From a virus, in the IMG/VR virus record IMGVR_UViG_3300007516_000005: DNA of 31,880 bases; one strand, given 5' to 3'. A program made the position numbers and the translations under genes. The notes under the pieces are model-generated. The model was not told where the DNA came from. It did not search any database and was given only the letters and a program-made list of their open reading frames with translations. Positions 4,147 to 31,653 of this stretch are shown one piece after another (the first letter of the stretch is position 1; every line of letters starts with the position of its first letter).

Positions 4147-4589
4147 TTAAGAAATCAAATATTGTGCACATTGGAAACGGGAAAAGTACACTTACTAAAA
4201 TACCTAAGCCTCCAGCATATCTAAATAATTCCGCTAAAAAACATTACAAAGAAATGGCCTCAAAATTAATAAAACTTGAAAGGCTAAAAGACATATTTCT
4301 AAATGCATTAGAAATATATGCTGAAGCTATGGCAACTTGGGAATGGGCCTCTCGACAAAGAAAACAAAAAAACAGTGAAGACCCTGGTACAGGCTACATT
4401 CAAACTTATCGTAGTGGTGCAACGAATATATCAACAGAATTAATTGTAATGCGTGATGCTGAAAAAACACTTTTCAAATGCTTCAAACAATTCGGTTTGG
4501 ACCCACGATCTGAAAAGGAATTAAAAACAGACACCAACCCTAATCAGTTAGAATTATTTGAAAATCTTAAAAAATCAATGAGCTCATAA
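4143..4589 (+). CDS. terS: Terminase small subunit (P27-family-like)
   Basis: 148 aa, immediately upstream of and overlapping terL. The PPAYLNNSAKKHYKEMASKLIKLERLKDIFLNALEIYAEAMATWEWA pattern resembles P27-type TerS. Confidence 0.7.
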   Translation: MIKKSNIVHIGNGKSTLTKIPKPPAYLNNSAKKHYKEMASKLIKLERLKDIFLNALEIYAEAMATWEWASRQRKQKNSEDPGTGYIQTYRSGATNISTELIVMRDAEKTLFKCFKQFGLDPRSEKELKTDTNPNQLELFENLKKSMSS

Positions 4590-6367
4590 TGATCCCTTCA
4601 AAAGAAATGCTTCAATCTGTTCCTTTTCAGTATGCGCAAGGTGTGCTGGATGGAACTATTATTACCGGTCGGTTTATCCGGTTGGAATGTGAGCGTTTCT
4701 TTTACTGGATTGAAAATGCAGAAACACAAGGTTATATTTTAGATCACGCGGCAGGTATGCAGGCGGTAAAATTCTTTCCTACCCTTTTAAACCACACAAA
4801 AGGAAAGCTCGCCGGGCAAAAATTTGAGCTAGCGCCCTTCCAGAAATTCACAATGTACAATGTATTTGGATGGAAGGATCTGAAAGGCAGCCGCCGCATT
4901 AATACAGTTTACGATAAGCGCGCAAAAAAAAACGGTAAATCTGCAGAAATGGCTGGTGTTGCTCTTTTTGGGATGAGTTTTGATGCTGAAGCTGAAGCAG
5001 AAATATACATTGGTGCCACTAAAGAAGAACAGGCAAAAATATGCTGGACCCAGGCCAAAAGCTTTATCGATGCTCCACAGGCAAATCCTATGCTTAGAAA
5101 ATTAGGTTTCCGAACAAAACAAAAAGAAATCTGGTGTGATATCACAAACTCTGTCCTTCGTCCGTTGGGAGGTGACAGTAAAACGCAGGATGGGATTAAC
5201 TCACACATTGCCATTATTGATGAATACCACGCCCACCGTGACGATACTGTAAAGGAAAATCTTGAAAGTTCTAGCGTGCAGCGCAGGCAACCCATAACCT
5301 GGCACATCACCACCGCCGGATCAGATAAAAACGGGGTTTGTAAATTGTACGAAGACGTGTGTAAAGATGTGCTTTTGGGTATAAAAGAAGATCACCATCT
5401 CTGGGTAATGATCCACGACCTGGACGAAGGTGATGACTGGGAAATTGAAGCCAACTGGATTAAAGCAAACCCGCTACTCCATAATGGACTGAGCATTGAC
5501 AACCTTCGTAAAGAATATAATAAATGTGTAAATCAGCCTAGCAAAGCCCCTAATTTTAAAACCAAACATCTAAATATGTGGGTAGATGTGATGCTGACCT
5601 GGATCCCAGATGAAATTTGGATGAAAAACAAAGACAAAGTAAGGATGGTAAACTTCATTAAATACGGTTGTGCCGGTGGTATTGACCTTTCAAGCACAAC
5701 AGATTTAAGCGCGTGGGGCCTTGTTTCAAATCCTGATGAAGATGGCTTTCGGGATATGTTTGTTTTGGTGTTTTGTCCCTCAGATACAATTGACCTTAGA
5801 AGCAAAGAAGATCGCGTGCCATATCGTTTTTGGAAAGACAAAAACTATGAAGACTATTTAGATCTAACAGATTTTCCTTTTGAATTACCTACCACAGATG
5901 TTTCCGGAAAATTAAAATTACTCATTGCCACACCGGGCAACGTGGTTGATTATGCTGTTATTGAAGACTATCTAGTTAAATACTCCTTCCTGCTTAAAAG
6001 CAAGTGGACAGACTTTGATCGCTATAATTCTACATATTTAGTAACAAATCTTCAGGAGCGAGGTGTGGAAATGCACCCTTTTGCGCAAACCATCACTCAC
6101 TTTTCAATGCCTACAAAAGAATTTGAAAAACTCGCTATGAGCGGAAAAATACGCCACGGCGGAAACCCAATAATGCAATGGTCCTTAACTGGTGCCGGAG
6201 TGATCCAGGACACAAATGAAAATATAAGAATTTCAAAAAAACATAGCACAAAAAGAATAGACCCACTCATTGCCACAATAATGGGTTTGGCAGCAACATT
6301 AACAGAAAAAGAAGAAACACAAAAGAAATCAAAATACAGCGACCCAAATGCGGAAGTTTATGTTTAA
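4589..6367 (+). CDS. terL: Terminase large subunit
   Basis: 592 aa. Walker A-like KRAKKNGKSAEMAG, Walker B AIIDEYH, and a C-terminal nuclease-sized domain. Position precedes the head genes. Confidence 0.93.
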   Translation: MIPSKEMLQSVPFQYAQGVLDGTIITGRFIRLECERFFYWIENAETQGYILDHAAGMQAVKFFPTLLNHTKGKLAGQKFELAPFQKFTMYNVFGWKDLKGSRRINTVYDKRAKKNGKSAEMAGVALFGMSFDAEAEAEIYIGATKEEQAKICWTQAKSFIDAPQANPMLRKLGFRTKQKEIWCDITNSVLRPLGGDSKTQDGINSHIAIIDEYHAHRDDTVKENLESSSVQRRQPITWHITTAGSDKNGVCKLYEDVCKDVLLGIKEDHHLWVMIHDLDEGDDWEIEANWIKANPLLHNGLSIDNLRKEYNKCVNQPSKAPNFKTKHLNMWVDVMLTWIPDEIWMKNKDKVRMVNFIKYGCAGGIDLSSTTDLSAWGLVSNPDEDGFRDMFVLVFCPSDTIDLRSKEDRVPYRFWKDKNYEDYLDLTDFPFELPTTDVSGKLKLLIATPGNVVDYAVIEDYLVKYSFLLKSKWTDFDRYNSTYLVTNLQERGVEMHPFAQTITHFSMPTKEFEKLAMSGKIRHGGNPIMQWSLTGAGVIQDTNENIRISKKHSTKRIDPLIATIMGLAATLTEKEETQKKSKYSDPNAEVYV

Positions 6368-6533: not shown

Positions 6534-7697
6534 ATGAACGAAATGAGTTTTAACAGTTTTTTGAGCGAAGGCAAATGCCGCAGGCAAATTACACACGGCT
6601 CTTTATTTAGTGGCATAGGTGGCTTTGACCTTGCATCCGAGTGGATGGGATGGGAAAATGTTTTTCACTGCGAATGGAACGAATTTGGACAAAAAGTATT
6701 AAAACATTACTGGCCTAAAGCAATTAGTTATGATGACATCACAAAGACAGACTTCTCTATTCACAGAGGAAAAATCGATATTCTTACCGGAGGATTCCCC
6801 TGCCAGCCGTACTCTATGGCTGGCAAAAGAAAGGGCAAAGAAGACGAGAGACATCTCTGGCCGGAAATGCTTAGAGCAATACGAGAGATTAAACCAAGGT
6901 ACGTTTTGGGGGAAAACGTTTCTGGGTTACTTAATTGGAATGGAGGACTGGTTTTCAACGAGGTGCAAGCTGACTTGGAAAATGAAGGGTACGAAGTACA
7001 ACCGTGTGTACTTCCAGCTTGTGCCGTCAACGCTCCCCACCGCAGAGATAGAGTCTGGTTTGTGGCCTACGCCAACGAGTGTGCAACGGGACCATCCGGA
7101 ACGAGTGGAGAAACTGAAAGCAACGGGAGCGAAAACAATGATGAGCCGAAAAGCGGGAGACAACAGACCGAACAGTATACTGGATGCAGCAATGTTCACG
7201 GGATTGCTACCAAGACCAAGAGCAAACCAAGTGAACGGTTGCAACTTGAACAGCGAGAAATTAGCGAACAGAAACAAAGGGAATTTAGAAGAGACAGTAG
7301 CGAAGTGGAATCAAAAAGGAATGCTTCCGACACCGAACGCAAGCGACAACCGGAACAGGGGCAACCCGCAGGATCCGTGCATTCAAAAACGAATATCGAA
7401 TGGAAAGCAAGTTGGTCTTACAATGATGATAGATGGCCAACTCAATCCCCAATTTGTAGCGGAAATGATGGGCTTTCCAGAGAACTGGACGGAATTACCT
7501 TTCCTAAATGGAGACAAGAATCAGTAAAAGCCTATGGAAACGCAATAGTGCCACAAATTGCACATCAAATATTTAAAGCTTTAATGTTAGCAGAATCAAA
7601 AGTTAAAACACTAACAAAATCAACACTTCTACAAAATGAAACCACAACCATTCTGGCTCACCGGCACTCATCCCATCACCGGTTGGAAAGTCTCTAA
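6534..7697 (+). CDS. DNA (cytosine-5)-methyltransferase
   Basis: Motif I SLFSGIGGF, IV GGFPCQPYS, VI LGENV, VIII PHRRDRVWFVA, X YGNAIVPQ. The central ~130 aa are low-complexity and hydrophilic. Confidence 0.9.
   Translation: MNEMSFNSFLSEGKCRRQITHGSLFSGIGGFDLASEWMGWENVFHCEWNEFGQKVLKHYWPKAISYDDITKTDFSIHRGKIDILTGGFPCQPYSMAGKRKGKEDERHLWPEMLRAIREIKPRYVLGENVSGLLNWNGGLVFNEVQADLENEGYEVQPCVLPACAVNAPHRRDRVWFVAYANECATGPSGTSGETESNGSENNDEPKSGRQQTEQYTGCSNVHGIATKTKSKPSERLQLEQREISEQKQREFRRDSSEVESKRNASDTERKRQPEQGQPAGSVHSKTNIEWKASWSYNDDRWPTQSPICSGNDGLSRELDGITFPKWRQESVKAYGNAIVPQIAHQIFKALMLAESKVKTLTKSTLLQNETTTILAHRHSSHHRLESL
6730..7527 (+). CDS. Alternative-frame (+1) ORF nested in the methyltransferase gene; coding status unresolved
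   Basis: 265-aa ATG ORF with LWPTPTS, MLPTPNASD and LNPQFVAEMMGFPENWT, which are motifs typical of phage MTase target-recognition/motif-IX regions. It lies entirely inside 6534..7697. Confidence 0.35.
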   Translation: MMTSQRQTSLFTEEKSIFLPEDSPASRTLWLAKERAKKTRDISGRKCLEQYERLNQGTFWGKTFLGYLIGMEDWFSTRCKLTWKMKGTKYNRVYFQLVPSTLPTAEIESGLWPTPTSVQRDHPERVEKLKATGAKTMMSRKAGDNRPNSILDAAMFTGLLPRPRANQVNGCNLNSEKLANRNKGNLEETVAKWNQKGMLPTPNASDNRNRGNPQDPCIQKRISNGKQVGLTMMIDGQLNPQFVAEMMGFPENWTELPFLNGDKNQ

Positions 7698-7781
7698 CTT
7701 TGGCGTAGCCGGCCGTGAAAAAATCGCCAAAAGCAGAAAACCAAAACCACAGCCCGTTTGGTCTGATAAAGAAAATTGATT

Positions 7782-8045
7782 ATGAAACAACCTCACACTC
7801 ACATTACAAACATAGCGGGCCTTAGTGAAACAGAAAAATTAAAAATTTCTATCACTATTGGTGGGCGCAGCTCTTATGGCTTTTTTCAGTACTACTTTGC
7901 AGAGCTGCCTCATCACCTCACACAAACAGCTGCGTTTAACCACGTCAACACATTATATTATGAACTATTTGGCGAGTACCGTTATGAAAGCTACGATGCC
8001 TTTCGCCACGTCTATGCCAGGCATCTAAAAAATAAAAATAAATGA
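7782..8045 (+). CDS. Hypothetical protein
   Basis: ATG at 7782 (track start is a TTG at 7776). 87 aa. Its stop overlaps the next start (ATGA). No family recognised. Confidence 0.6.
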   Translation: MKQPHTHITNIAGLSETEKLKISITIGGRSSYGFFQYYFAELPHHLTQTAAFNHVNTLYYELFGEYRYESYDAFRHVYARHLKNKNK

Positions 8046-8224
8046 TTAAAATACTCCTTACTTTTATAATAGCCATCATAGTATTAATGGCCACCACACT
8101 GCTATTTGAGTGGCAATTCATAATAAAACACTGGACGCGGCAAACCCTCGTGCTTGTATTTATGATTATTCAAGTAGCTATTTACTATTTAATAATTAAA
8201 GAGCAAATTAAAGACTTGAAATAA
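8042..8224 (+). CDS. Small membrane protein (two predicted TM helices)
   Basis: 60 aa with two hydrophobic segments, ILLTFIIAIIVLMATTLLF and LVLVFMIIQVAIYYLII. Confidence 0.55.
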   Translation: MIKILLTFIIAIIVLMATTLLFEWQFIIKHWTRQTLVLVFMIIQVAIYYLIIKEQIKDLK

Positions 8225-8236
8225 AAAACCAAATAA

Positions 8237-8599
8237 ATGAAAAGATTAAATTTTAGATTTTGGGATGTAACATTAAAAAAAATGTGTTACAGAAAACCAT
8301 TAACGTATGATTTTTCGATAAAAGATATTATCCCATTGCAATCAATCGGACGTGAAGATAAAAACGGAATTGAAATATATGAAGGGGATTACCTTGTAGA
8401 TAGATACCCTATTGATGAAGAAAATTTAAGTTTAGGGTACAATGAAAGTCTTTTGCCTGTTGTTTGGTGCAAAGATACTTTAAGCTGGTGTGTTGATGCT
8501 TCATTTTTAAAAAACGGAACTTTCTTAACCTCACTCGTGGAATATTTTGGTGAGTTTTTAGAGGTCAAAGGGAATGTTTATGAAAATGCACTTCCGTAG
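8237..8599 (+). CDS. YopX-family protein
   Basis: FRFWD..., GREDKNGIEIYEGDYL and a C-terminal VKGNVYEN match the YopX pattern. Confidence 0.75.
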   Translation: MKRLNFRFWDVTLKKMCYRKPLTYDFSIKDIIPLQSIGREDKNGIEIYEGDYLVDRYPIDEENLSLGYNESLLPVVWCKDTLSWCVDASFLKNGTFLTSLVEYFGEFLEVKGNVYENALP

Positions 8600-8604
8600 T
8601 ATTT

Positions 8605-8890
8605 GCCCTAACGCTTGGGCTATGAATTGAAGCCCTTAACAGAAAGTTCAATTCGCATACTAATTTAACTTAGGCTTTTATTTATAGCCTGTGTTAGCGG
8701 TTCGGCTTTACGGACTTAACTTAAAAAGCAATGAAAACAAGAGGGTATTCGGCATTTTCAAGCGTAATTAATGGCAAACTTCGTAAAGGGCGAGTTGTTT
8801 GTCGGAATATCGCCTAACGCATGGGTATAAGAAACGGTTGCCTATCCGTCCAGAGAATTTGGCAACTGTTTTTTATACCGTGTTACCTGA
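8605..8890 (+). ncRNA. Candidate structured RNA region with two paralogous long hairpins and a central helix
   Basis: No ORF of 60 aa or more on either strand across 8600-8930. Hairpin A: 8608-8614/8691-8697 plus 8617-8623/8684-8690. Hairpin B: 8815-8820/8880-8885 plus a 19-bp stem 8824-8842/8861-8879. Central helix: 8706-8714/8780-8788. G-T pairs are tolerated only if the + strand is read as RNA. Confidence 0.3.
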
Positions 8891-8948
8891 CTGTTATTAT
8901 TAAAAGAAAAAAAACGATGGCAAATTATTTTTGCAAAAAATAAAACTT

Positions 8949-9650
8949 ATGAAACCACTAAATAGAAAAAATTACGGTTCAATACCGCATCTATCTAATA
9001 GTAAATTAGGAACTGGCGACCACTTTGTAAATCAAGGAGAAGAGAGTATATTAACCCAAAAAAAACGAGATAAGCACGATGAAATATTTGTGTTTGAAAA
9101 GTACGACGGTTCTAATGTTGGAATTGGCAAAATAGACAACAAAATAATTGCAGTAACTCGAAGTGGTTATGTAGCAAATACAAGCCCTTATAAACAGCAC
9201 CATTTATTTAGTGAATGGGTTTATAAAAATATAATGACTTGGATGTACTTATTGAAAAATGGCGAAAGAATTACTGGTGAATGGTTGGCACAAGCACACG
9301 GAATTAAATATGATATTCACGAAAAATTACAGCCAATAATTTTCTTTGATCACTTTAACGAAAATAACGAAAGAAGTGGCTTTGATGTATTAGACACTTT
9401 TTACAAAGAATACGAAATACAATTACCAAGACTTTTACATAGAGGCGATTCAAAAAGTGTTGAAGATTTAAAAACTGAACTCAATAAAAAAACCTACGGA
9501 ATAAATCCAGAAGGAAAACCCGAAGGAATGGTTTATAGAGTTGAACGAAAAGGAAAGGTAGATTTCCTCGCTAAATGGGTGAGAAGTGATTTTGAGCCAG
9601 GTAAATACATTATAGACAAACAAGAAAGCGAACTAATATGGAACGTATAG
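8949..9650 (+). CDS. ATP-dependent RNA-ligase-family nucleotidyltransferase (minimal ligase)
   Basis: N-terminal YGSIPHL, motif I EKYDGSN (KxDG), ITGEWL, motif IV PEGMVYRV, motif V KVDFLAKWVR. The first ATG is at 8949 (track start is a TTG at 8931). Confidence 0.8.
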   Translation: MKPLNRKNYGSIPHLSNSKLGTGDHFVNQGEESILTQKKRDKHDEIFVFEKYDGSNVGIGKIDNKIIAVTRSGYVANTSPYKQHHLFSEWVYKNIMTWMYLLKNGERITGEWLAQAHGIKYDIHEKLQPIIFFDHFNENNERSGFDVLDTFYKEYEIQLPRLLHRGDSKSVEDLKTELNKKTYGINPEGKPEGMVYRVERKGKVDFLAKWVRSDFEPGKYIIDKQESELIWNV

Positions 9651-9705
9651 ATATGCTCTACTTGCAGGGGGCTTTTTATTTTAATAATAATTGCAGGTAA
9701 CATGA

Positions 9706-9773
9706 GTATATACGACATGTAACCACAAATCATGTCGTATATACGCCCATATACCATATATCACGACATGTAA
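9706..9773. promoter_or_regulatory. 14-bp perfect inverted repeat plus a third copy of the ACGACATGTAA box
   Basis: GTATATACGACATG (9706-9719) pairs with CATGTCGTATATAC (9731-9744). ACGACATGTAA occurs at 9712-9722 and again at 9763-9773. Located in the intergenic region between the ligase and PolX-like genes. Confidence 0.4.
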
Positions 9774-9848
9774 ATTAATAATTAAAAAAAAGTAATTCTT
9801 TATAACTGAAATCACATATTAAGTAACACTTAAAAACTGAAAATTATT

Positions 9849-10340
9849 ATGGAATATCAAAAAGCTCTTAATATTGCCTTAAATGTGGTCGAATTATTAA
9901 AACCTCATTGTGAAAGAATTGAAATTGCTGGAAGTATTAGAAGGCAAAAACCAGAAGTTAAGGACATTGAAGTAGTTGTTATTCCAAAACCTTATGAAAC
10001 AGGATTGTTTGAATCTGGAATAGCAACAGTTGTAAGCAGATGGGAGAAAGTGAAAGGTGAATTGCCTTGCAAATACACCCAAAGAATATTACCAGAAGGG
10101 ATAAAACTCGATTTGTTTTTTGCTGAACGTGGAAACTGGGGATTAATTTACGCTATTAGAACTGGGAGTGCTGAATATTCTCATAAGGTTTTGGCTACTG
10201 AATGGGTAAGGCGTGGTTATAAATCTGAAGATGGCTACTTGACTTCTAACGGTAAACAAATAATGGTTTTAGAAGAACAGGATTTATTTAATAGAATTGG
10301 ATTACCATTTAAAAATCCAACTGAAAGATTTTATGAATAA
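9849..10340 (+). CDS. Minimal Pol X-like (Pol beta superfamily) nucleotidyltransferase
   Basis: 163 aa. AGSIRRQKPEVKDIEVVVIP (GS-x10-DxE), third carboxylate in KLDLFF, and a C-terminal EEQDLFNRIGLPFKNPTER like the Pol X thumb. The palm-plus-thumb-only layout and size resemble the 174-aa ASFV Pol X. Confidence 0.7.
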   Translation: MEYQKALNIALNVVELLKPHCERIEIAGSIRRQKPEVKDIEVVVIPKPYETGLFESGIATVVSRWEKVKGELPCKYTQRILPEGIKLDLFFAERGNWGLIYAIRTGSAEYSHKVLATEWVRRGYKSEDGYLTSNGKQIMVLEEQDLFNRIGLPFKNPTERFYE

Positions 10341-10445: not shown

Positions 10446-11660
10446 ATGGCAAACATCGTTCAAAGAGCACTAACGTCTCTAGTAACATCCCCAGGAAACC
10501 CCGGCGAGCGACGCTCTATGGGGTTTCCTTTTTTGCCATTTAACCCTCTCAAAGGTGAGTTTGGTGCGGTCATTAGCACAAATGCCGCCCTTACCCTACC
10601 CGCTTATTACAATGCCGTGGACCAAATTACAAACGACATTGCAAAACTACCTAAACACGTCTACAAAAAAAACGGGACTAATCGTGAAAAACTAAGTCAA
10701 CACCCTATTTCTTACCTAATAAACCGCGAGCCAAACAAACTAATGACCGCCTTTATCTTTCATAAAATGATGGCCCAGGCGGCAATAAATCGTGGCAACG
10801 GTATCGCTATTATTAACCGGGGTCAAAATACAGCGATTATTCAATCCCTCGAGTTTGTCCATCCTGACGACATAAAAGATATCAAACTAGTTTCAAACGA
10901 GCTATACTATTTTATAAAAGAGAAAGTATATACCTCAGATGAAGTTATTCATATCACAGGCTATACAGACAATGGTCTTGTAGGCGTTTCCGTAATAAAA
11001 TATGCGGCAAACGTGTTGGGGATATCACTCGCTGCACAAAAATTCTCACAAGAAACCTTTGAAAACCGCGGCGTTGGGTATGCAGTTATTGAAGCAGATG
11101 GCGACATTCCAAAAGAGAAAAAAGCCGAAATAGAAAATGCGGTCAATTCAAAACTTCAAGGCGATGGAAAAATAAAATCGGTGATGCTTGATGACGGGCA
11201 TAAATACAAAGCAATACAAATAAATAACCAGGAAGCACAACTTGTAGAGCAGGGTAAGCTATCTATTGCAGATATCTGCCGGTTTTTAAATATTTCACTA
11301 CACAAAGTAAAAATGCTTGATAACGCAAATTACAATGCGCTTAATATGTTAAATATTGAGCACGCCAGCGACAGCATACAGCCGTGGAGTATTAAATTTT
11401 CACAAGAATACGATAAAAAGCTTTTTACAGACAATGAAAAAATAGATCATTACATCAAGATGAATGACAATATCCTTTTGCGTGCAGATCTACAAACTAA
11501 AGGCGAGTGGTATTCTAAAGCAGTACAGGCGGGCATTTACACTCGCAATGAGATAAGAGCAATGGAAGAATTAAACGAAATCGATGGATTAAGCGAACCT
11601 CTCACGCCCGTAAATACACAAACCCAGGCACAAATTAAAAACAATCTGGAAAATGAATAA
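10446..11660 (+). CDS. Portal protein (HK97 family)
   Basis: 404 aa, directly followed by the prohead protease and major capsid genes. The sequence has an HK97-type portal character (NAVDQITNDIAKLPKHVY...). Confidence 0.88.
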   Translation: MANIVQRALTSLVTSPGNPGERRSMGFPFLPFNPLKGEFGAVISTNAALTLPAYYNAVDQITNDIAKLPKHVYKKNGTNREKLSQHPISYLINREPNKLMTAFIFHKMMAQAAINRGNGIAIINRGQNTAIIQSLEFVHPDDIKDIKLVSNELYYFIKEKVYTSDEVIHITGYTDNGLVGVSVIKYAANVLGISLAAQKFSQETFENRGVGYAVIEADGDIPKEKKAEIENAVNSKLQGDGKIKSVMLDDGHKYKAIQINNQEAQLVEQGKLSIADICRFLNISLHKVKMLDNANYNALNMLNIEHASDSIQPWSIKFSQEYDKKLFTDNEKIDHYIKMNDNILLRADLQTKGEWYSKAVQAGIYTRNEIRAMEELNEIDGLSEPLTPVNTQTQAQIKNNLENE

Positions 11661-12309
11661 AGGAAAAGATTACATCAAAAATATTGAAGGAGCAGAGCGC
11701 CGCTATTTTATGCAGACTGTCACCGCAGAAGTGCGCACAGCAGGCGATGAAAAAACCGCTATAATTGAAGGCTATGGTGCCGTTTATAATTCCCGTGCAG
11801 ATCTTGGGTGGTTTGAAGAAGAAATACTTCCGGGCGCATTTGACGAAGTGTTGAATGACGATGTGCGATGTCTTATTAACCACGACCCTAATTTAATACT
11901 AGCGCGATCAGTAAATGGTAAAGGAACTCTTTCACTTTCGCTAGATAGTAAAGGCCTAAAATACAGCTTTGAAACCCCTGATATATCTTATGCCCGTGAC
12001 TTGCAAAAGTCTATCGAATTGGGAAATATAGATAAATCTTCTTTCAGCTTTCGCATAAAAGAAGATAAATGGATCAAACGGGATAATAAGCCAGAACTAC
12101 GTCAAATTGTAAAATTCAAATCACTAATGGATGTGTCGCCGGTAACATACCCTGCATACATCGATAGTAGTGTAGCTAAAAGAAGTTTTGATGCTTTTAA
12201 AGATGACACTGAAGAAACAAACGACACCGTCACCGGTGCAAGTGAAGATAATTGTATTAGCGGGTATGAAGCTCGTTACAAGTTTAACCTTAATAAATGT
12301 AAGCAATGA
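11653..12309 (+). CDS. Prohead maturation protease (HK97 family)
   Basis: GYGAVYNSRADLGWFEEEILPGAF, LINHD and KSSFSF motifs. Overlaps both the portal and capsid genes. Confidence 0.9.
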   Translation: MNKGKDYIKNIEGAERRYFMQTVTAEVRTAGDEKTAIIEGYGAVYNSRADLGWFEEEILPGAFDEVLNDDVRCLINHDPNLILARSVNGKGTLSLSLDSKGLKYSFETPDISYARDLQKSIELGNIDKSSFSFRIKEDKWIKRDNKPELRQIVKFKSLMDVSPVTYPAYIDSSVAKRSFDAFKDDTEETNDTVTGASEDNCISGYEARYKFNLNKCKQ

Positions 12310-13619
12310 AAAAGTCTGATGCTTTAAAACAAGAACGAGCTTCCAAAATCGAAGCCCAGGGCAACCTGATTACACAAACAGAAACCGAAAAGAGAGCCTT
12401 TTCAGAAACTGAAACCGCAGAGTTTAATAACCTCGATGAAGAAATTCGCGCACTCGATATCGAGATCGAGCAAGCCTTAAAAATAGAAGCTGCGCAAAAA
12501 CGTGCGGCAGAACAAGCTGCGCCGAGTTCAGGAGTATCTGGCACAACAATCCAAGGACCACAAAAAAAAGAAGGTAATGAGGCTGCGGAAAAACGTAAAA
12601 TATTAGCCAGGGCTTCTATTTCACGTGCAATTTCTAGGGTGAGTTCAGGACTTTCACTGGAAGGTGCTGAAAAAGAAATGAGCGAAATCGCAGTGGAAGA
12701 ATCCCGCTTGGCAGGAGTGCCGATAAATGAGAAGGCATTACTGCATATACCTATGTCTATGCTTAGAGCAACTGCACATACAGTTACTGAAGACAGTGGA
12801 AATTTTGGTGGGCAGTTAGTTCATAACGATGCTCCAAAAGTGTTTATGCCTTTTGCTCCTAAAACTTTTCTTGAAAAACTGGGTGCAACACGATGGACAA
12901 GTCTTAAAGGCAACGTCCCTTTAGTGACAGGAAATAATTATGATTTCCAGTGGCTCGCAGAAACGGCCGCTATTACGGTACAAAAACAACAATTTGATGG
13001 TGGATCACTTTCGCCTAAAAGATTAGGAGCAGCTGTAGAAATTTCAAACCAATTGCTGATACAGTCATCTGTAGATGTTGAAGCTACCGTGCGAGGTCTT
13101 CTCTTTGCAGGATATGACCGCGCTATAAATGCTGCTGCTATAAATGGTGCCGGCGGTTTAGAGCCAACCGGTTTATTAAACACAGTAGGAATTCAAGAAT
13201 CTACTACTGTTGTAGCAACACCGGCTACCCGCGCAATGATTATCGAGTTGCAGTCTCTTATTGAAATTGCAAATGCAACTGAGGATTCTCTGGGCTATTT
13301 AATGTCGCCAGGGCTAAAAGCTTCGCTTCAAAATACAAAAGTAGACGCAGGCAGTGGTCTGTTTTTATTAGATGCAGGTCCTTTATTAGGATATAAAGTA
13401 GTCACGTCAACTTTAGTGCCTGAATTAGCCAGTAATCAAGTAATGATATTTGGTGACTGGAGCAAACTGTATATTGGTGAATGGGGATCAATGAGTGTTC
13501 TTTCAGATCCTTATTCAGCATCTTTAAGCAACTCAGTAAGGCTTGTAGTAAATGCACACGCAGATGTCGCTATTGCACAGCCTGAAGCATTTGCTGTAAA
13601 TAAATTTCTAGAAATTTAA
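12306..13619 (+). CDS. Major capsid protein (HK97 fold) with N-terminal coiled-coil delta/scaffold domain
   Basis: 437 aa. Charged coiled-coil N-terminus (about the first 100 aa), then a typical HK97 MCP body. No separate scaffold gene is present. Confidence 0.9.
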   Translation: MKKSDALKQERASKIEAQGNLITQTETEKRAFSETETAEFNNLDEEIRALDIEIEQALKIEAAQKRAAEQAAPSSGVSGTTIQGPQKKEGNEAAEKRKILARASISRAISRVSSGLSLEGAEKEMSEIAVEESRLAGVPINEKALLHIPMSMLRATAHTVTEDSGNFGGQLVHNDAPKVFMPFAPKTFLEKLGATRWTSLKGNVPLVTGNNYDFQWLAETAAITVQKQQFDGGSLSPKRLGAAVEISNQLLIQSSVDVEATVRGLLFAGYDRAINAAAINGAGGLEPTGLLNTVGIQESTTVVATPATRAMIIELQSLIEIANATEDSLGYLMSPGLKASLQNTKVDAGSGLFLLDAGPLLGYKVVTSTLVPELASNQVMIFGDWSKLYIGEWGSMSVLSDPYSASLSNSVRLVVNAHADVAIAQPEAFAVNKFLEI

Positions 13620-13691: not shown

Positions 13692-13764
13692 AGTGAGGTA
13701 GAGCAGTTGGTAGCTCGCCGGGTTCATATCCCGGAGGTCGTGGGTTCAAATCCCGCCCTCGCTT
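13692..13764 (+). tRNA. tRNA with CAT anticodon (Met; an Ile-lysidine reading cannot be excluded)
   Basis: 73-nt cloverleaf. Acceptor AGTGAGG/CCTCGCT, D arm GAGC/GCTC, anticodon arm CCGGG-TTCATAT-CCCGG, T arm GTGGG-TTCAAAT-CCCGC. No encoded CCA. Confidence 0.85.
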
Positions 13765-13779
13765 CTAAATGTATTCACA

Positions 13780-27790: not shown

Positions 27791-27848
27791 TAATTCTTTA
27801 AATTATGTTTTAATTGTTTGATATATAGCATTTTATATTTTTAAAAAG

Positions 27849-27895
27849 TCTGCCTTCTAAGCAGACGGTCAGAGGTTCGAATCCTCTCGCGATCA
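27849..27895 (+). other. attP core: the 3' 47 nt of a tRNA-Arg(TCT) gene (anticodon arm through discriminator)
   Basis: TCTGC-CTTCTAA-GCAGA anticodon arm, CGGTC variable loop, AGAGG-TTCGAAT-CCTCT T arm, CGCGATC acceptor 3' strand, then A. There is no D arm or 5' acceptor strand upstream. The integrase gene lies 140 nt downstream. Confidence 0.8.
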
Positions 27896-27972: not shown

Positions 27973-28020
27973 CGCAAATTGTGCGCAAATTTGGTAAAAA
28001 TTGCAACATTTTTGCAACAT
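27973..28020. repeat. Phased 11-bp direct repeats (CGCAAATT x2, TTGCAACAT x2); candidate arm-type sites (P' arm)
   Basis: CGCAAATT at 27973 and 27984; TTGCAACAT at 28001 and 28012. Immediately upstream of the integrase ATG. Confidence 0.4.
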
Positions 28021-28033
28021 CAAACAGTCTCGT

Positions 28034-29251
28034 ATGAAAATAACCATTACTTTAAATCGCGATAGGGTAACTGATCTTGGTCATCCTCTTGAATTGAAAA
28101 TTTCTCATCAAGGGAAACGAAAACAATTAATTATTTCGCACGCTAAGCTTCAGCAGTGGAATTTAAAAACAAACCTTCCTTTACAAAATCACCCGGCTTT
28201 TATGGAATTATATGAGCAAATTTTGCTTATTAAAGAAAGGGCTCTTTCTTTGCGATTTAAAGGTTTAAATGATTTAGATGATGCTATGGGGTTACTTCTT
28301 AATGATGGTGTAGCAAAACAGGATAATGTTGATTTTTACAACTATGTTTCAAGATATTTTACCAGTTTTAATGGTGCCGGTCTTGGTAAAGATAGTGTTA
28401 GTAGGCGAGGTAATATTGCTGTTTATAAAAATGCAGTCAAACAGATGGTAAAATATTACCCCGATTTTAGTTATAGTGATTTTGATTATAAAAAGATGTA
28501 TGCCTGGAAGATGTATTTATTGGAGCGTGGATTAAGCCTAGCAACGGTTAGTAATTATTTACGTACTATTAGAGCTTTGTATAATGAAATGTGCCGGGCC
28601 ACTGGTTTAGAAAACAGGCGGCCGTTTGAAAATGTGTTTACTGGGTTAAAGCGTAAAAGTTACAGATCAAAAAAGAAACATTTGTCGCGCATTGGTATTT
28701 TACGCCTGATATTGAAAAAAAATATCACGGAAACTTCTAAAAAGTATGTCGATATGTGGATGTTGCAGTTTTATTTTGGTGGTGCGGATTTAATGGATAT
28801 TTATTATTTAAAAAATGAAGATGTGCAGGGTGGGCGTGTTAGTTTTTGGCGCGGAAAAATGGAAAACAGCCCTTTAATTGATTTAAAAATACATTCCCAA
28901 GCTTTGGAAATTATTGACCGATACCGGCAGGATGGGGAATATGTTTTTCCCTGGCGAAAAGATGTAGATGGATATCGCTCTTTTCGTGGAAATATGTACC
29001 GGGATTTGATAAAATTTCAAGTAAAAAACAATGTGCAGGTGCATCCCGGTGGTGGTAAATTGGGGTTAAAAGTTGCGCGGCATAGTTTTGCTACTTTGGC
29101 AAAAAATTCAGGTGTTCCCGGGGATATTAGGCGTGAAATTATGGGACATACTGAAGATAATGTAGCAAATTTTTACGAAGATCTGCATAAGGTTGAAAAA
29201 AGAGATGCAGGATTATTTAAGGTCATTGATTTTATTTTTCTTGGTCCGTAA
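28034..29251 (+). CDS. int: Tyrosine-type site-specific integrase
   Basis: ARHSFATLAKNSGV and IMGHTEDNVANFY fit the catalytic R-H-R-Y region. The first ATG is at 28034; the track TTG at 28001 lies in the repeat region. Adjacent to the tRNA-derived attP. Confidence 0.9.
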   Translation: MKITITLNRDRVTDLGHPLELKISHQGKRKQLIISHAKLQQWNLKTNLPLQNHPAFMELYEQILLIKERALSLRFKGLNDLDDAMGLLLNDGVAKQDNVDFYNYVSRYFTSFNGAGLGKDSVSRRGNIAVYKNAVKQMVKYYPDFSYSDFDYKKMYAWKMYLLERGLSLATVSNYLRTIRALYNEMCRATGLENRRPFENVFTGLKRKSYRSKKKHLSRIGILRLILKKNITETSKKYVDMWMLQFYFGGADLMDIYYLKNEDVQGGRVSFWRGKMENSPLIDLKIHSQALEIIDRYRQDGEYVFPWRKDVDGYRSFRGNMYRDLIKFQVKNNVQVHPGGGKLGLKVARHSFATLAKNSGVPGDIRREIMGHTEDNVANFYEDLHKVEKRDAGLFKVIDFIFLGP

Positions 29252-31256: not shown

Positions 31257-31589
31257 ATGGAAGGTTTTATAAACGCAGATGAATTTATTGATGCTTTGTC
31301 CAGGCGAGGTCTTGTTATTGTTTCTGTAAGTAATTTTGAAACTTTTGTTGTTAAGAAAAAAGCCACTATTAAAGAAAAGCAGGCTATTTTTTTGAAAAAA
31401 AAGGCTTTAACATTTAAGGAAATTATTGATGCCGAGTTTTTTGATGTAACGAGTAAAAATACCTTCAGATACTGGATAAAAACAGGCCGTATTATGGAAG
31501 ATGAACATTTTATAAGTGAAAAAAATGGTAAGCATTATGTGCTTACCATTGCTGTTTTAAGGCTTTTGAGGTATGATAATTTTGTTTAA
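31257..31589 (+). CDS. HTH (excisionase/MerR-like) DNA-binding protein candidate
   Basis: LTFKEIIDAEFFDVTSKNTFRYWIKTGRI resembles an HTH_17-type motif. Confidence 0.4.
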   Translation: MEGFINADEFIDALSRRGLVIVSVSNFETFVVKKKATIKEKQAIFLKKKALTFKEIIDAEFFDVTSKNTFRYWIKTGRIMEDEHFISEKNGKHYVLTIAVLRLLRYDNFV

Positions 31590-31653
31590 TGTTTTGGCTC
31601 TCAATCGCTTTATAGTGTATAGGTGATGTTAACAAATTTAAAAAATCAAGATA

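Follow-up and report, generated by a model that had tools for sequence, protein, structure and literature searches.

What are the two long hairpins that lie between a YopX-family gene and an RNA-ligase-family gene in the viral DNA IMGVR_UViG_3300007516_000005? They are found in a gap at positions 8600-8948 of this stretch of 31,880 nucleotides (nt), which we call the window. Both hairpins, elements A and B, are members of a widespread multi-copy family of hairpin cassettes which fold on the gene-sense strand. The family is found in phages infecting marine Bacteroidota, between accessory genes, and it is new to Rfam. These hairpins are general gene-boundary signals and are not ligase-specific: The ligase is one cassette among many. 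The features of the gap which are needed here are the following:

8237-8599, + strand: YopX-family gene, which borders the gap 8600-8948 on its 5' side
8597-8605, + strand: 5' box of element A, TAGTATTTG, which includes the YopX stop codon TAG (8597-8599)
8606-8699, + strand: element A, with a clamp, a 2-nt bulge, an upper stem and a 38-nt loop
8812-8888, + strand: element B, a short-loop member of the family, with an 18-nt loop

In element A the clamp is formed by CTAACGC (8608-8614) and GTGTTAG (8691-8697). The inner helix pairs GGGCTAT (8617-8623) with ATAGCCT (8684-8690) and is part of an upper stem (8617-8634 / 8673-8690) which includes two G-U pairs and one U-U mismatch. Element B has a clamp of TAACGC (8815-8820) with GTGTTA (8880-8885) and a stem of 19 base pairs (bp; 8824-8842 / 8861-8879), 89% of them Watson-Crick and the remainder G-T. 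The flanks of both elements are direct repeats, CCTAACGC(T/A)TGGG, at 92%, and their 3' arms match at 78%. All the helix coordinates given in a preliminary description of this DNA have been verified in the sequence. The same description stated that the gap has no open reading frame (ORF) of at least 60 amino acids on either strand, and this is also the case: The largest ones have 34 and 40 amino acids.

Both hairpins are much more stable than shuffled sequences, and more stable on the + strand than on the other one. The folding energy of element A is -29.9 kcal/mol (z-score -4.43) on the + strand and -24.0 kcal/mol (z -2.74) on the - strand, the corresponding values for element B are -31.9 kcal/mol (z -5.61) and -21.8 kcal/mol (z -2.38). 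For the complete 340 nt, z is -4.35 on the + strand and -2.54 on the - strand. Elements A and B are the only TAACG...TGTTA hairpins with a strong folding energy in the 31.9-kb window. No U run is found directly after either of them, and a terminator scan is negative at both. With loops of 38 and 18 nt, they do not present the short G+C-rich stem, 3-8 nt loop and adjoining U run of an intrinsic terminator. This agrees with the earlier remark that hairpin B lacks a trailing U-tract and is not a plain terminator.

The family becomes apparent when other genomes are considered. We designate the fetched loci by L-numbers; L111 is Cellulophaga phage phi17:1 and L112 is Polaribacter phage P12002S. In a BLAST comparison with isolated phages, hairpin A matches an intergenic site in phi17:1, and the 3' foot of element B, together with the next 60 nt, matches an intergenic site in P12002S. 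An exact 17-mer taken from the 5' arm of A is found in 48 IMG/VR stretches. The full hairpin is present in 41 of them and a half-element in two; the remaining five are chance matches in G+C-rich coding DNA. In the collection of species genomes, only 8 of the 52 matches are true, the other 44 being chance matches in unrelated, mostly G+C-rich genomes. The eight true records correspond to Lacinutrix, Lutibacter, two Kordia, Maribacter, and metagenome-assembled genomes of a Cyclobacteriaceae, a Saprospiraceae and a Balneolaceae.

The 28 distinct sequences of the A type have invariant arms on both sides, including the two G-U pairs and the U-U mismatch, and a partly conserved loop. A covariance model built from their alignment, R1, gives element A a score of 88.8 bits on the + strand and 28.8 on the - strand. 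R1 finds many strongly diverged extra copies in the same contigs, always on the strand of the strong copy. Some of them form dense arrays: L047 has about 11 copies in 5 kb, and L001 and L002, the phages with the closest relatives of the ligase, have six each. The model, which was built only from A-type copies, also matches element B (26.7 bits, E 0.0015, with filters off). Close structural relatives of element B are found in L006, L055, L056 and L057.

All these copies share the same anatomy: an A-T-T-G box, 4 nt, TAACG, a spacer of 2-6 nt, the stem, the loop, a spacer of 0-3 nt and TGTTA. The stem has 15-25 bp of free sequence, usually starting with G(G/T)(C/A)TAT, and the loop has 4-90 nt. 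The box is seen in 48 distinct upstream flanks, with T at position -7 in 46 of the 48, A at -8 in 30, T at -6 in 33 and G at -5 in 28. The invariance of TAAC...GTTA arises by construction of the search; its pairs are retained in the model-fitted alignment A3 described below, and pairing of the clamp past 4-5 bp is found in only 40-60% of the elements. Across the family, no pairing of the 5' box or of an outer helix with the 3' flank is found above background. In the window, a pairing of TACGGA (8709-8714) and TCCGTA (8592-8597) would be possible; we have considered such a CCGTA/TACGG outer pairing around element A as a family feature, and it is not general. About 14 of the 48 elements (for example in L013, L049, L056, L001 and L002) have a recurrent box 8-15 nt after TGTTA. 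This box is CTGG(T/C)(G/A)CGG, TACGG or GGGCGG, followed by a sequence similar to ATTTTAAA.

An alternative pairing is also observed in the A type. In most copies, GAATTGAA in the 5' arm (8624-8631) is perfectly complementary to TTCAATTC in the loop (8647-8654). The loop variants TTCGATTC, TTTAATTC and TTGATTC retain this pairing through wobble pairs; the loops of the phi17:1 type are without it. The alternative pairing of arm and loop could make the A type a two-state switch.

The comparison with Rfam, suggested in the preliminary description, gives no family match in the gap. With Rfam 15, only tRNAs reach the gathering threshold in the window. A permissive search of positions 8400-9100 gives a best E of 0.36 (a microRNA model, 20.5 of 90 bits), and nine element-rich loci give no matches. 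A prior description of the family was not found in the literature searched, which yielded only general papers or papers on the promoter-early stem-loops (PeSLs) of T4. According to the preliminary description, a match to a known repeat, or to a family of miniature inverted-repeat transposable elements (MITEs) scattered in host genomes, would refute a structured RNA. This applies in part: The elements do form a repeat family, but it is phage-borne and found only in sense orientation, and it is not a MITE scattered in hosts.

The pairing of the stems is under selection, with sense-strand polarity. In a model-fitted alignment of 39 distinct copies (A3), 89.8% of the cells pair, compared with 80.5% in shuffles. 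Seventeen of the 25 pairs change on both sides, and there are 83 such cells, versus 32 +/- 4 in shuffles. None of 500 shuffles reaches the observed values, and a slid partner pairs in only 36-47%. As a check which is independent of this model-fitted alignment, we have aligned each stem arm to arm: The 39 distinct upper stems pair at 88.9% with their own 3' arm, and at 44% with swapped 3' arms (maximum 55% in 2000 trials). The compensatory changes first noted between two units are thus a property of the whole family. In the A type, whose 3' arm is fixed, four single variants of the 5' arm are found. Three of them keep the pairing, two by a change of G-U to A-U and one by a change of C-G to U-G, and the fourth results in A-C.

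Other comparisons were rejected. Covariation within the A-type alignment alone is uninformative, because both arms are invariant in sequences which were fetched by an exact 17-mer of the 5' arm. A comparison of stems which took no account of register was replaced by the arm-to-arm and model-based alignments, since a third of the stems were mis-registered. A MAFFT alignment of trimmed stems had shifted registers, and no single structure line was possible.

The preliminary description had also argued for the + strand, from the G-T pairs in the window. In the whole family, a strand-neutral detector of transition mismatches between the arms finds 82 G-T on the gene-sense strand, versus 17 A-C/C-A; in the structures predicted by RNAfold, the values are 166 and 10. 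Together with the better folding on the + strand and the family itself, this wobble bias bears out the proposal of a conserved, strand-specific structured element. The wobble pairs have a strong polarity of their own: In 65 of 69 pairs (144 of 166 in the RNAfold structures), it is the 5' arm which has the G and the 3' arm which has the U. In the family as a whole, 3' arms are U-rich and 5' arms are G-rich.

The elements are placed at gene boundaries, and mosaic boundaries between phages are found at the cassette. In 44 of the 48 distinct elements, an upstream ORF on the same strand (at least 35 codons) stops at TAACG or at most 53 nt before it. The stop codon is the TAA of TAACG itself in 16 of these 44; in the others it is found 6-53 nt upstream. 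After short elements, the next ATG appears 13-40 nt downstream. In the A type, the conservation extends over a leader of 15 nt (GCAACTTTTAAAATT and variants), which ends exactly at the ATG of unrelated proteins. Long-loop elements (116-130 nt) are different: Of the 19 listed, 10 have the start codon (ATG) of a long downstream ORF inside the loop. This ATG is near the centre of an A-rich single strand of about 65 nt, and the 3' arm and TGTTA are coding. The 3' arm is read in different frames in different elements, therefore a nucleic-acid constraint is overlaid on low-complexity N-termini.

Several comparisons illustrate the mosaic character of these regions. A leader peptide encoded by the element, MSKENE..NGNDFIADV, is found in L019 with a protein body unrelated to those of L042 and phi17:1 gp8. 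L029 and L052 have the hairpin and the following gene in common, and differ in the DNA which precedes TAACG. In L001 and L002 the ligase is shared as far as TAACG, with divergence beyond it. Half-elements of both kinds exist, and some of them keep the 3' arm, the leader and the ATG. Breakpoints in gene content are also seen at cassettes when element B of the window is compared with P12002S, although few such pairs are available overall. The elements are found in accessory or early blocks: an insert between terminase and portal genes in the window, and the leftward early arm in phi17:1 and P12002S.

The genes next to the elements have little in common. Hairpins of the A type precede dozens of unrelated genes. 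In the 61 loci examined, no conserved partner protein is found beside the arrays, beyond an SNF2-like helicase which is the commonest neighbour, and the ligase is present in only five. In L001 and L002, the hairpins found before its relatives are other members of the family.

A few loci deserve a separate comment. In L027 (minus strand, offsets 808 and about 950), two elements are found in tandem, 21 nt apart, with no ORF between them. A textbook terminator (GGGAGG..CCTCCC and a T run) is located within a few nt upstream of an element in L027, L010 (7368) and L113. We have discarded a canonical upstream terminator as a rule of the family, as it is seen in few loci only. In phi17:1 (1474-1758 and 2432-2734), the annotated start of gp6 is a TTG in the clamp and that of gp8 is an ATG in the 5' arm; in P12002S (about 38000-38125), there is an overlap of the annotated gp53 methyltransferase with an element. 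Genes annotated into elements probably start further downstream or in the loop.

The remainder of the region in the window includes the following features:

8731-8817, + strand: ORF of 28 codons, MKTRGYSAFSSVINGKLRKGRVVCRNIA, between A and B; its stop TAA is the TAA of TAACG in element B
8886-8948, + strand: conserved A-rich leader or promoter-like module, which ends at the ligase ATG
8949-9650, + strand: RNA-ligase-family gene (Pfam RNA_ligase, 3.4e-22; phrog_38169, 8e-131)
9690-9744, + strand: element C, degenerate, with ATTG (9690-9693), TAAC (9698-9701) and a perfect 14-bp stem (9706-9719 / 9731-9744)

The spacer between A and B does not behave like the elements. A further helix (8706-8714 / 8780-8788) had been proposed to organize it. 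The inverted repeat is indeed present (12 nt, 83%), but an organizing role is not supported: It is missing from the minimum-energy fold, and the fold of the spacer (8698-8815) is no more stable than that of shuffled sequences (z -1.04). No relatives of the spacer are found among the fetched loci, nor of the 28-codon ORF, which may be either the remnant of a cassette or a micro-ORF.

The module which follows element B is different, as it is well conserved: 96-98% identity over about 60 nt is found with L055, L056, L057 and Polaribacter phage P12002S, where the module precedes methyltransferase-like or other genes. It contains TATTTTTG (8926-8933), a perfect TAnnTTTG box. This sequence matches what we take to be the -7 promoter consensus of Bacteroidota, and its promoter activity is a prediction. 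A TAnnTTTG box at +40 or +49 past the hairpin is only found in the B subclass, which comprises five of the 48 elements. A host-type promoter has thus been rejected as a rule of the family: Only the B subclass has one. In all five sequences the module is an A-rich segment of about 60 nt which ends in TTATTTTTGCAAAAAATAAAA (31568-31623 in P12002S). It is followed by the RNA ligase in the window, by methyltransferases in P12002S (gp38) and L055, according to annotation or motif, by a C5-methylase-like ORF in L056 and by an uncharacterised ORF in L057. Genes of the anti-restriction type may share it as a strong signal for early expression.

The true start of the ligase is probably ATG 8949 and not TTG 8931, because its relatives align from residue 5-7 onward. 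Directly after the gene we find element C, a decayed copy, so that the ligase is flanked by two elements, B and C. Element C has no 3' TGTTA clamp. Its folding energy is -19.2 kcal/mol (z -6.3), and its 5' box region (TTTTAATAATAATTGCAGG and TAAC) matches the flank of an element in L056.

All three elements are located in an accessory block (6534-10340) between the large terminase gene (4589-6367) and the portal gene (10446-11660), an unusual site for a moron island. The block includes a C5 DNA methylase, small ORFs, YopX, the RNA ligase and a pol-beta-like protein. An ORF of 265 amino acids (6730-7527) lies wholly within the C5 methylase gene in another frame and is probably spurious. Outside this block, a complete tRNA-Met (CAT) gene (13692-13765) is found in the structural module, right after an ORF of 437 amino acids (12306-13619). 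A partial tRNA (27830-27887; Rfam model positions 9-63 of 71, 36.9 bits) is found just before a tyrosine integrase gene (28001-29251). This arrangement resembles a prophage attachment site, so the window probably spans one end of a prophage.

How may these hairpins work? With modest confidence, we favour a cis-acting RNA on the sense strand, a boundary cassette which also serves gene exchange, as its unit or its linker. Since folding takes place on the gene-sense strand, the hairpin most likely acts as RNA in the multi-gene transcripts of the phage. Clamp and stem would sequester the flanking sequence, and the A/U-rich translation start region would be left single-stranded, either immediately 3' of the hairpin or within its loop. 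In Bacteroidota, Shine-Dalgarno sequences are not used by the ribosomes and it is the structure of the mRNA that tunes initiation (PMC6847099), which is why an open start region would matter. The hairpin may also give the message a protective structured end. A role as leader of the downstream gene, taken on its own, is a more tentative proposal, which we consider possible and no better than that.

The same clamp, box and leader are found between many unrelated genes, which suggests that the cassettes act as linkers in the exchange of accessory genes. This role would be modelled on the PeSLs of T4, where recombination has been shown experimentally (PMC2839356). In the window, A would head the 28-codon ORF and B would close that unit, the promoter-like leader would then drive the ligase and C would close the ligase cassette. 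The preliminary description had proposed a cis-regulatory leader of the ligase. A cis-regulatory role is plausible, but a specific link to the ligase is not supported, considering the variety of genes which follow hairpin A and the five loci in which a ligase is present.

Several observations weigh against the RNA boundary cassette. The strand asymmetry would also be compatible with folded DNA of the sense strand, and the A3 alignment is model-fitted, which favours the structure. Element B is upstream of the promoter-like module; a ligase mRNA starting from this module would exclude B, so a leader role cannot hold for the B subclass. A T run (at least 4) starting 5-9 nt after TGTTA is found in 54% of the elements, versus 16% of random positions, which resembles a terminator. 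The clamp supplies the stop codon of the upstream gene in 36% of the cases, so that the elements are closely linked to the upstream gene as well. Tandem elements exist with little or nothing between them, as A and B in the window or those in L027. Both arms and parts of the loop of the A type are nearly invariant across distant hosts, more than a structural clamp would need, which hints at a specific binding partner. Finally, the 5' box only loosely matches the -7 promoter box of the hosts.

Some of these observations would fit a PeSL in the strict sense, a composite in which a terminator or attenuator may be joined by a promoter: The hairpin would stop or damp transcription from upstream and a promoter would restart it for the downstream gene. 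We consider this unlikely, although it has the best claim among the alternatives. Since element B precedes a conserved promoter-like module, with its perfect TAnnTTTG box 40 nt further on, it looks more like the end of the upstream unit. The enrichment in T runs holds even where the stretch is coding, and the stop codon of the upstream gene is often in the clamp. PeSLs of the T4 type are composites of this kind, and their stem-loops terminate transcription in reporter tests (PMC2839356). On the other hand, loops of 40-90 nt and AU-rich stems of 17-25 bp are unlike intrinsic terminators, the T run is apart from the stem, and neither copy in the window has one. Where a textbook terminator is already present directly upstream, as in the three loci mentioned above, a second one would be redundant. 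In the elements with ATG in the loop, termination would abort the gene about 60 nt past its start. No host-type promoter box is found near 43 of the 48 elements. Processing is a less probable alternative, and we find it rather improbable: Host RNase III or a phage nuclease would cut the hairpins, as in the sites between T7 early genes, and release separate stable mRNAs. The elements have a lower helix of 5-7 bp, an asymmetric internal loop (2-6 / 0-3 nt) and an upper stem of 15-25 bp, about two helical turns in all, and they are found in sense orientation between co-transcribed genes. In structure, two turns with an internal loop, between cistrons, correspond to the T7 type of RNase III site. 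As in T7, a paralogous family is present within one genome, and the conserved clamp and box could be a recognition element. A double-strand cut would nevertheless sever the coding region in the elements with ATG in the loop. Moreover, no conserved nuclease gene is found beside the arrays, where the SNF2-like helicase is the commonest neighbour.

The hairpins might instead be recombination sites which act as structured single-strand DNA, like the attC sites of integrons, or they might be mobile foldback elements; units of hairpin and gene would be moved by a recombinase. This is a very unlikely alternative, in spite of a number of similarities. The clamp TAAC...GTTA holds the AAC/GTT core of attC R boxes, with a G right after the AAC, which is also the case in most attC sites when the bottom strand is read (PMC2727003). 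The elements resemble attC in their length (46-155 nt), their free stem sequence, the unpaired spacer and the variable terminal loop. Their arrays are unidirectional, with stop codons in the clamp, the homology of two phages is often lost at the hairpin foot, and half-elements exist. If it were true, the accessory arrays of Bacteroidota phages would be an integron-like cassette system with its own novel recombinase, in which a hairpin with a ready-made start codon and leader peptide is pasted before new genes. Against this reading, the integrase of the window matches only generic Xer models, far below the cut-off, and no integron-integrase model exceeds 25 bits; no such recombinase is annotated in the complete genomes of phi17:1 and P12002S. 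The gene-sense strand is the better folder (82 vs 17), but attC uses the bottom strand, with extrahelical bases on the R''-L'' arm (PMC2727003). The extra bases are in the spacer and not extrahelical in the stem, the break-points of homology vary (TAACG, inside the 3' arm, TGTTA or ATG), and nothing in attC corresponds to the conserved 5' box and leader. A target-site duplication is also absent, as no element-specific direct repeat is seen (4.5 versus 4.29 matches of 7). This last result, and the sense orientation (an upstream ORF on the same strand in 44 of 48), led us to reject a MITE or foldback transposon. We have also rejected translational bypass between clamp codons in L002, which has no matching take-off and landing codons, and single-strand DNA promoters of the Frpo or N4 type, as the stems are too short for two promoter boxes and tailed phages inject double-stranded DNA. 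The remaining ideas come from the preliminary description: a free-standing small RNA (sRNA), or a substrate, guide or dedicated leader of the ligase or of a nucleotidyltransferase. The hairpins do adjoin a gene of the RNA_ligase family and a pol-beta-like gene, and the RNA is strongly structured. We find these ideas highly improbable. The family flanks dozens of unrelated genes, with a ligase in 5 of 61 loci, and the ligase relatives in L001 and L002 carry other hairpins upstream, so a ligase or nucleotidyltransferase substrate or guide is not borne out. No tRNA-like signal (ARAGORN, Rfam) and no Rfam match are found in the gap. A free-standing sRNA gene fares no better: There is no pair of sRNA promoter and terminator around the hairpins, which occupy the interval from a stop codon to the following start.

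The sense-strand RNA boundary cassette, which we prefer, would have some practical consequences. The family would provide a name and a search model for a recurrent signal in phages of marine Flavobacteriia and other Bacteroidota, whose expression signals are poorly known. Annotation should also benefit, because several gene starts in the databases run into hairpins, such as those of phi17:1 gp6 and gp8. Start codons in a clamped loop, together with a portable leader peptide, suggest a route to translatability without Shine-Dalgarno sequences. The cassettes mark the exchange sites of methyltransferase, ligase and other accessory genes, and they could serve as landmarks for islands of anti-defence genes.

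Some similarity is found with several known systems. Stem-loops at the 5' end of some messages, such as the ompA leader, stabilize mRNA with a hairpin at the head of the message, near the start codon. Our elements are also stable hairpins shortly before a start codon, but they form a repeated, exchangeable family with conserved flanking boxes. Correia elements and similar transcribed MITE foldbacks are repeats of about 100-150 nt which form long hairpins when co-transcribed and affect expression. The repeats described here also fold as long hairpins, but they are found in sense orientation only, without target-site duplication, their stems differ between copies, and they belong to phage genomes instead of being scattered in host chromosomes. 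The early genes of T7 are separated by hairpins processed by RNase III. These are also paralogous long intercistronic hairpins with an internal loop, in sense orientation and just before the starts of early-operon genes. There is no sequence similarity with our family, and in some of our copies the hairpin extends into the coding region, with the start codon inside it.

The sites known as attC (PMC2727003) are imperfect palindromes of 50-150 nt, with an AAC...GTT foot, a free stem, an unpaired spacer and a variable loop. They are found in one orientation between cassettes, often with a stop codon in the foot, and all this applies to our elements. Nevertheless, no integron integrase is found in the window or annotated in phi17:1 and P12002S, the sense strand is the better folder, no extrahelical bases are found in the stem, break-points are variable, and a 5' box and a leader are present in addition.

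The closest known kind are the PeSL regulatory cassettes of T4-like phages (Arbiol et al. 2010, PMC2839356; Comeau et al. 2014, PMC4122927). Their defining feature is a strong early promoter of the sigma-70 type, but here a host-type box is only found in the B subclass (5 of 48). PeSL stems are short and G/C-rich; those of our family are AU-rich, with 15-25 bp and a TAACG/TGTTA clamp, and they are accompanied by an ATTG box and a one-sided G-U polarity. A start codon is enclosed in some of our loops, of up to 90 nt, and a leader peptide comes with it. The two kinds of cassette are also found in different groups of phages and hosts, and mini-circles are described for PeSLs. In spite of these differences, both are short conserved cassettes which contain a stem-loop with G-T pairs. 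Both occur in many copies which separate small accessory genes of the same orientation, in plastic regions of the genome, and in both cases the cassettes are found at the points where related phages differ in gene content, as seen here in a few pairs.

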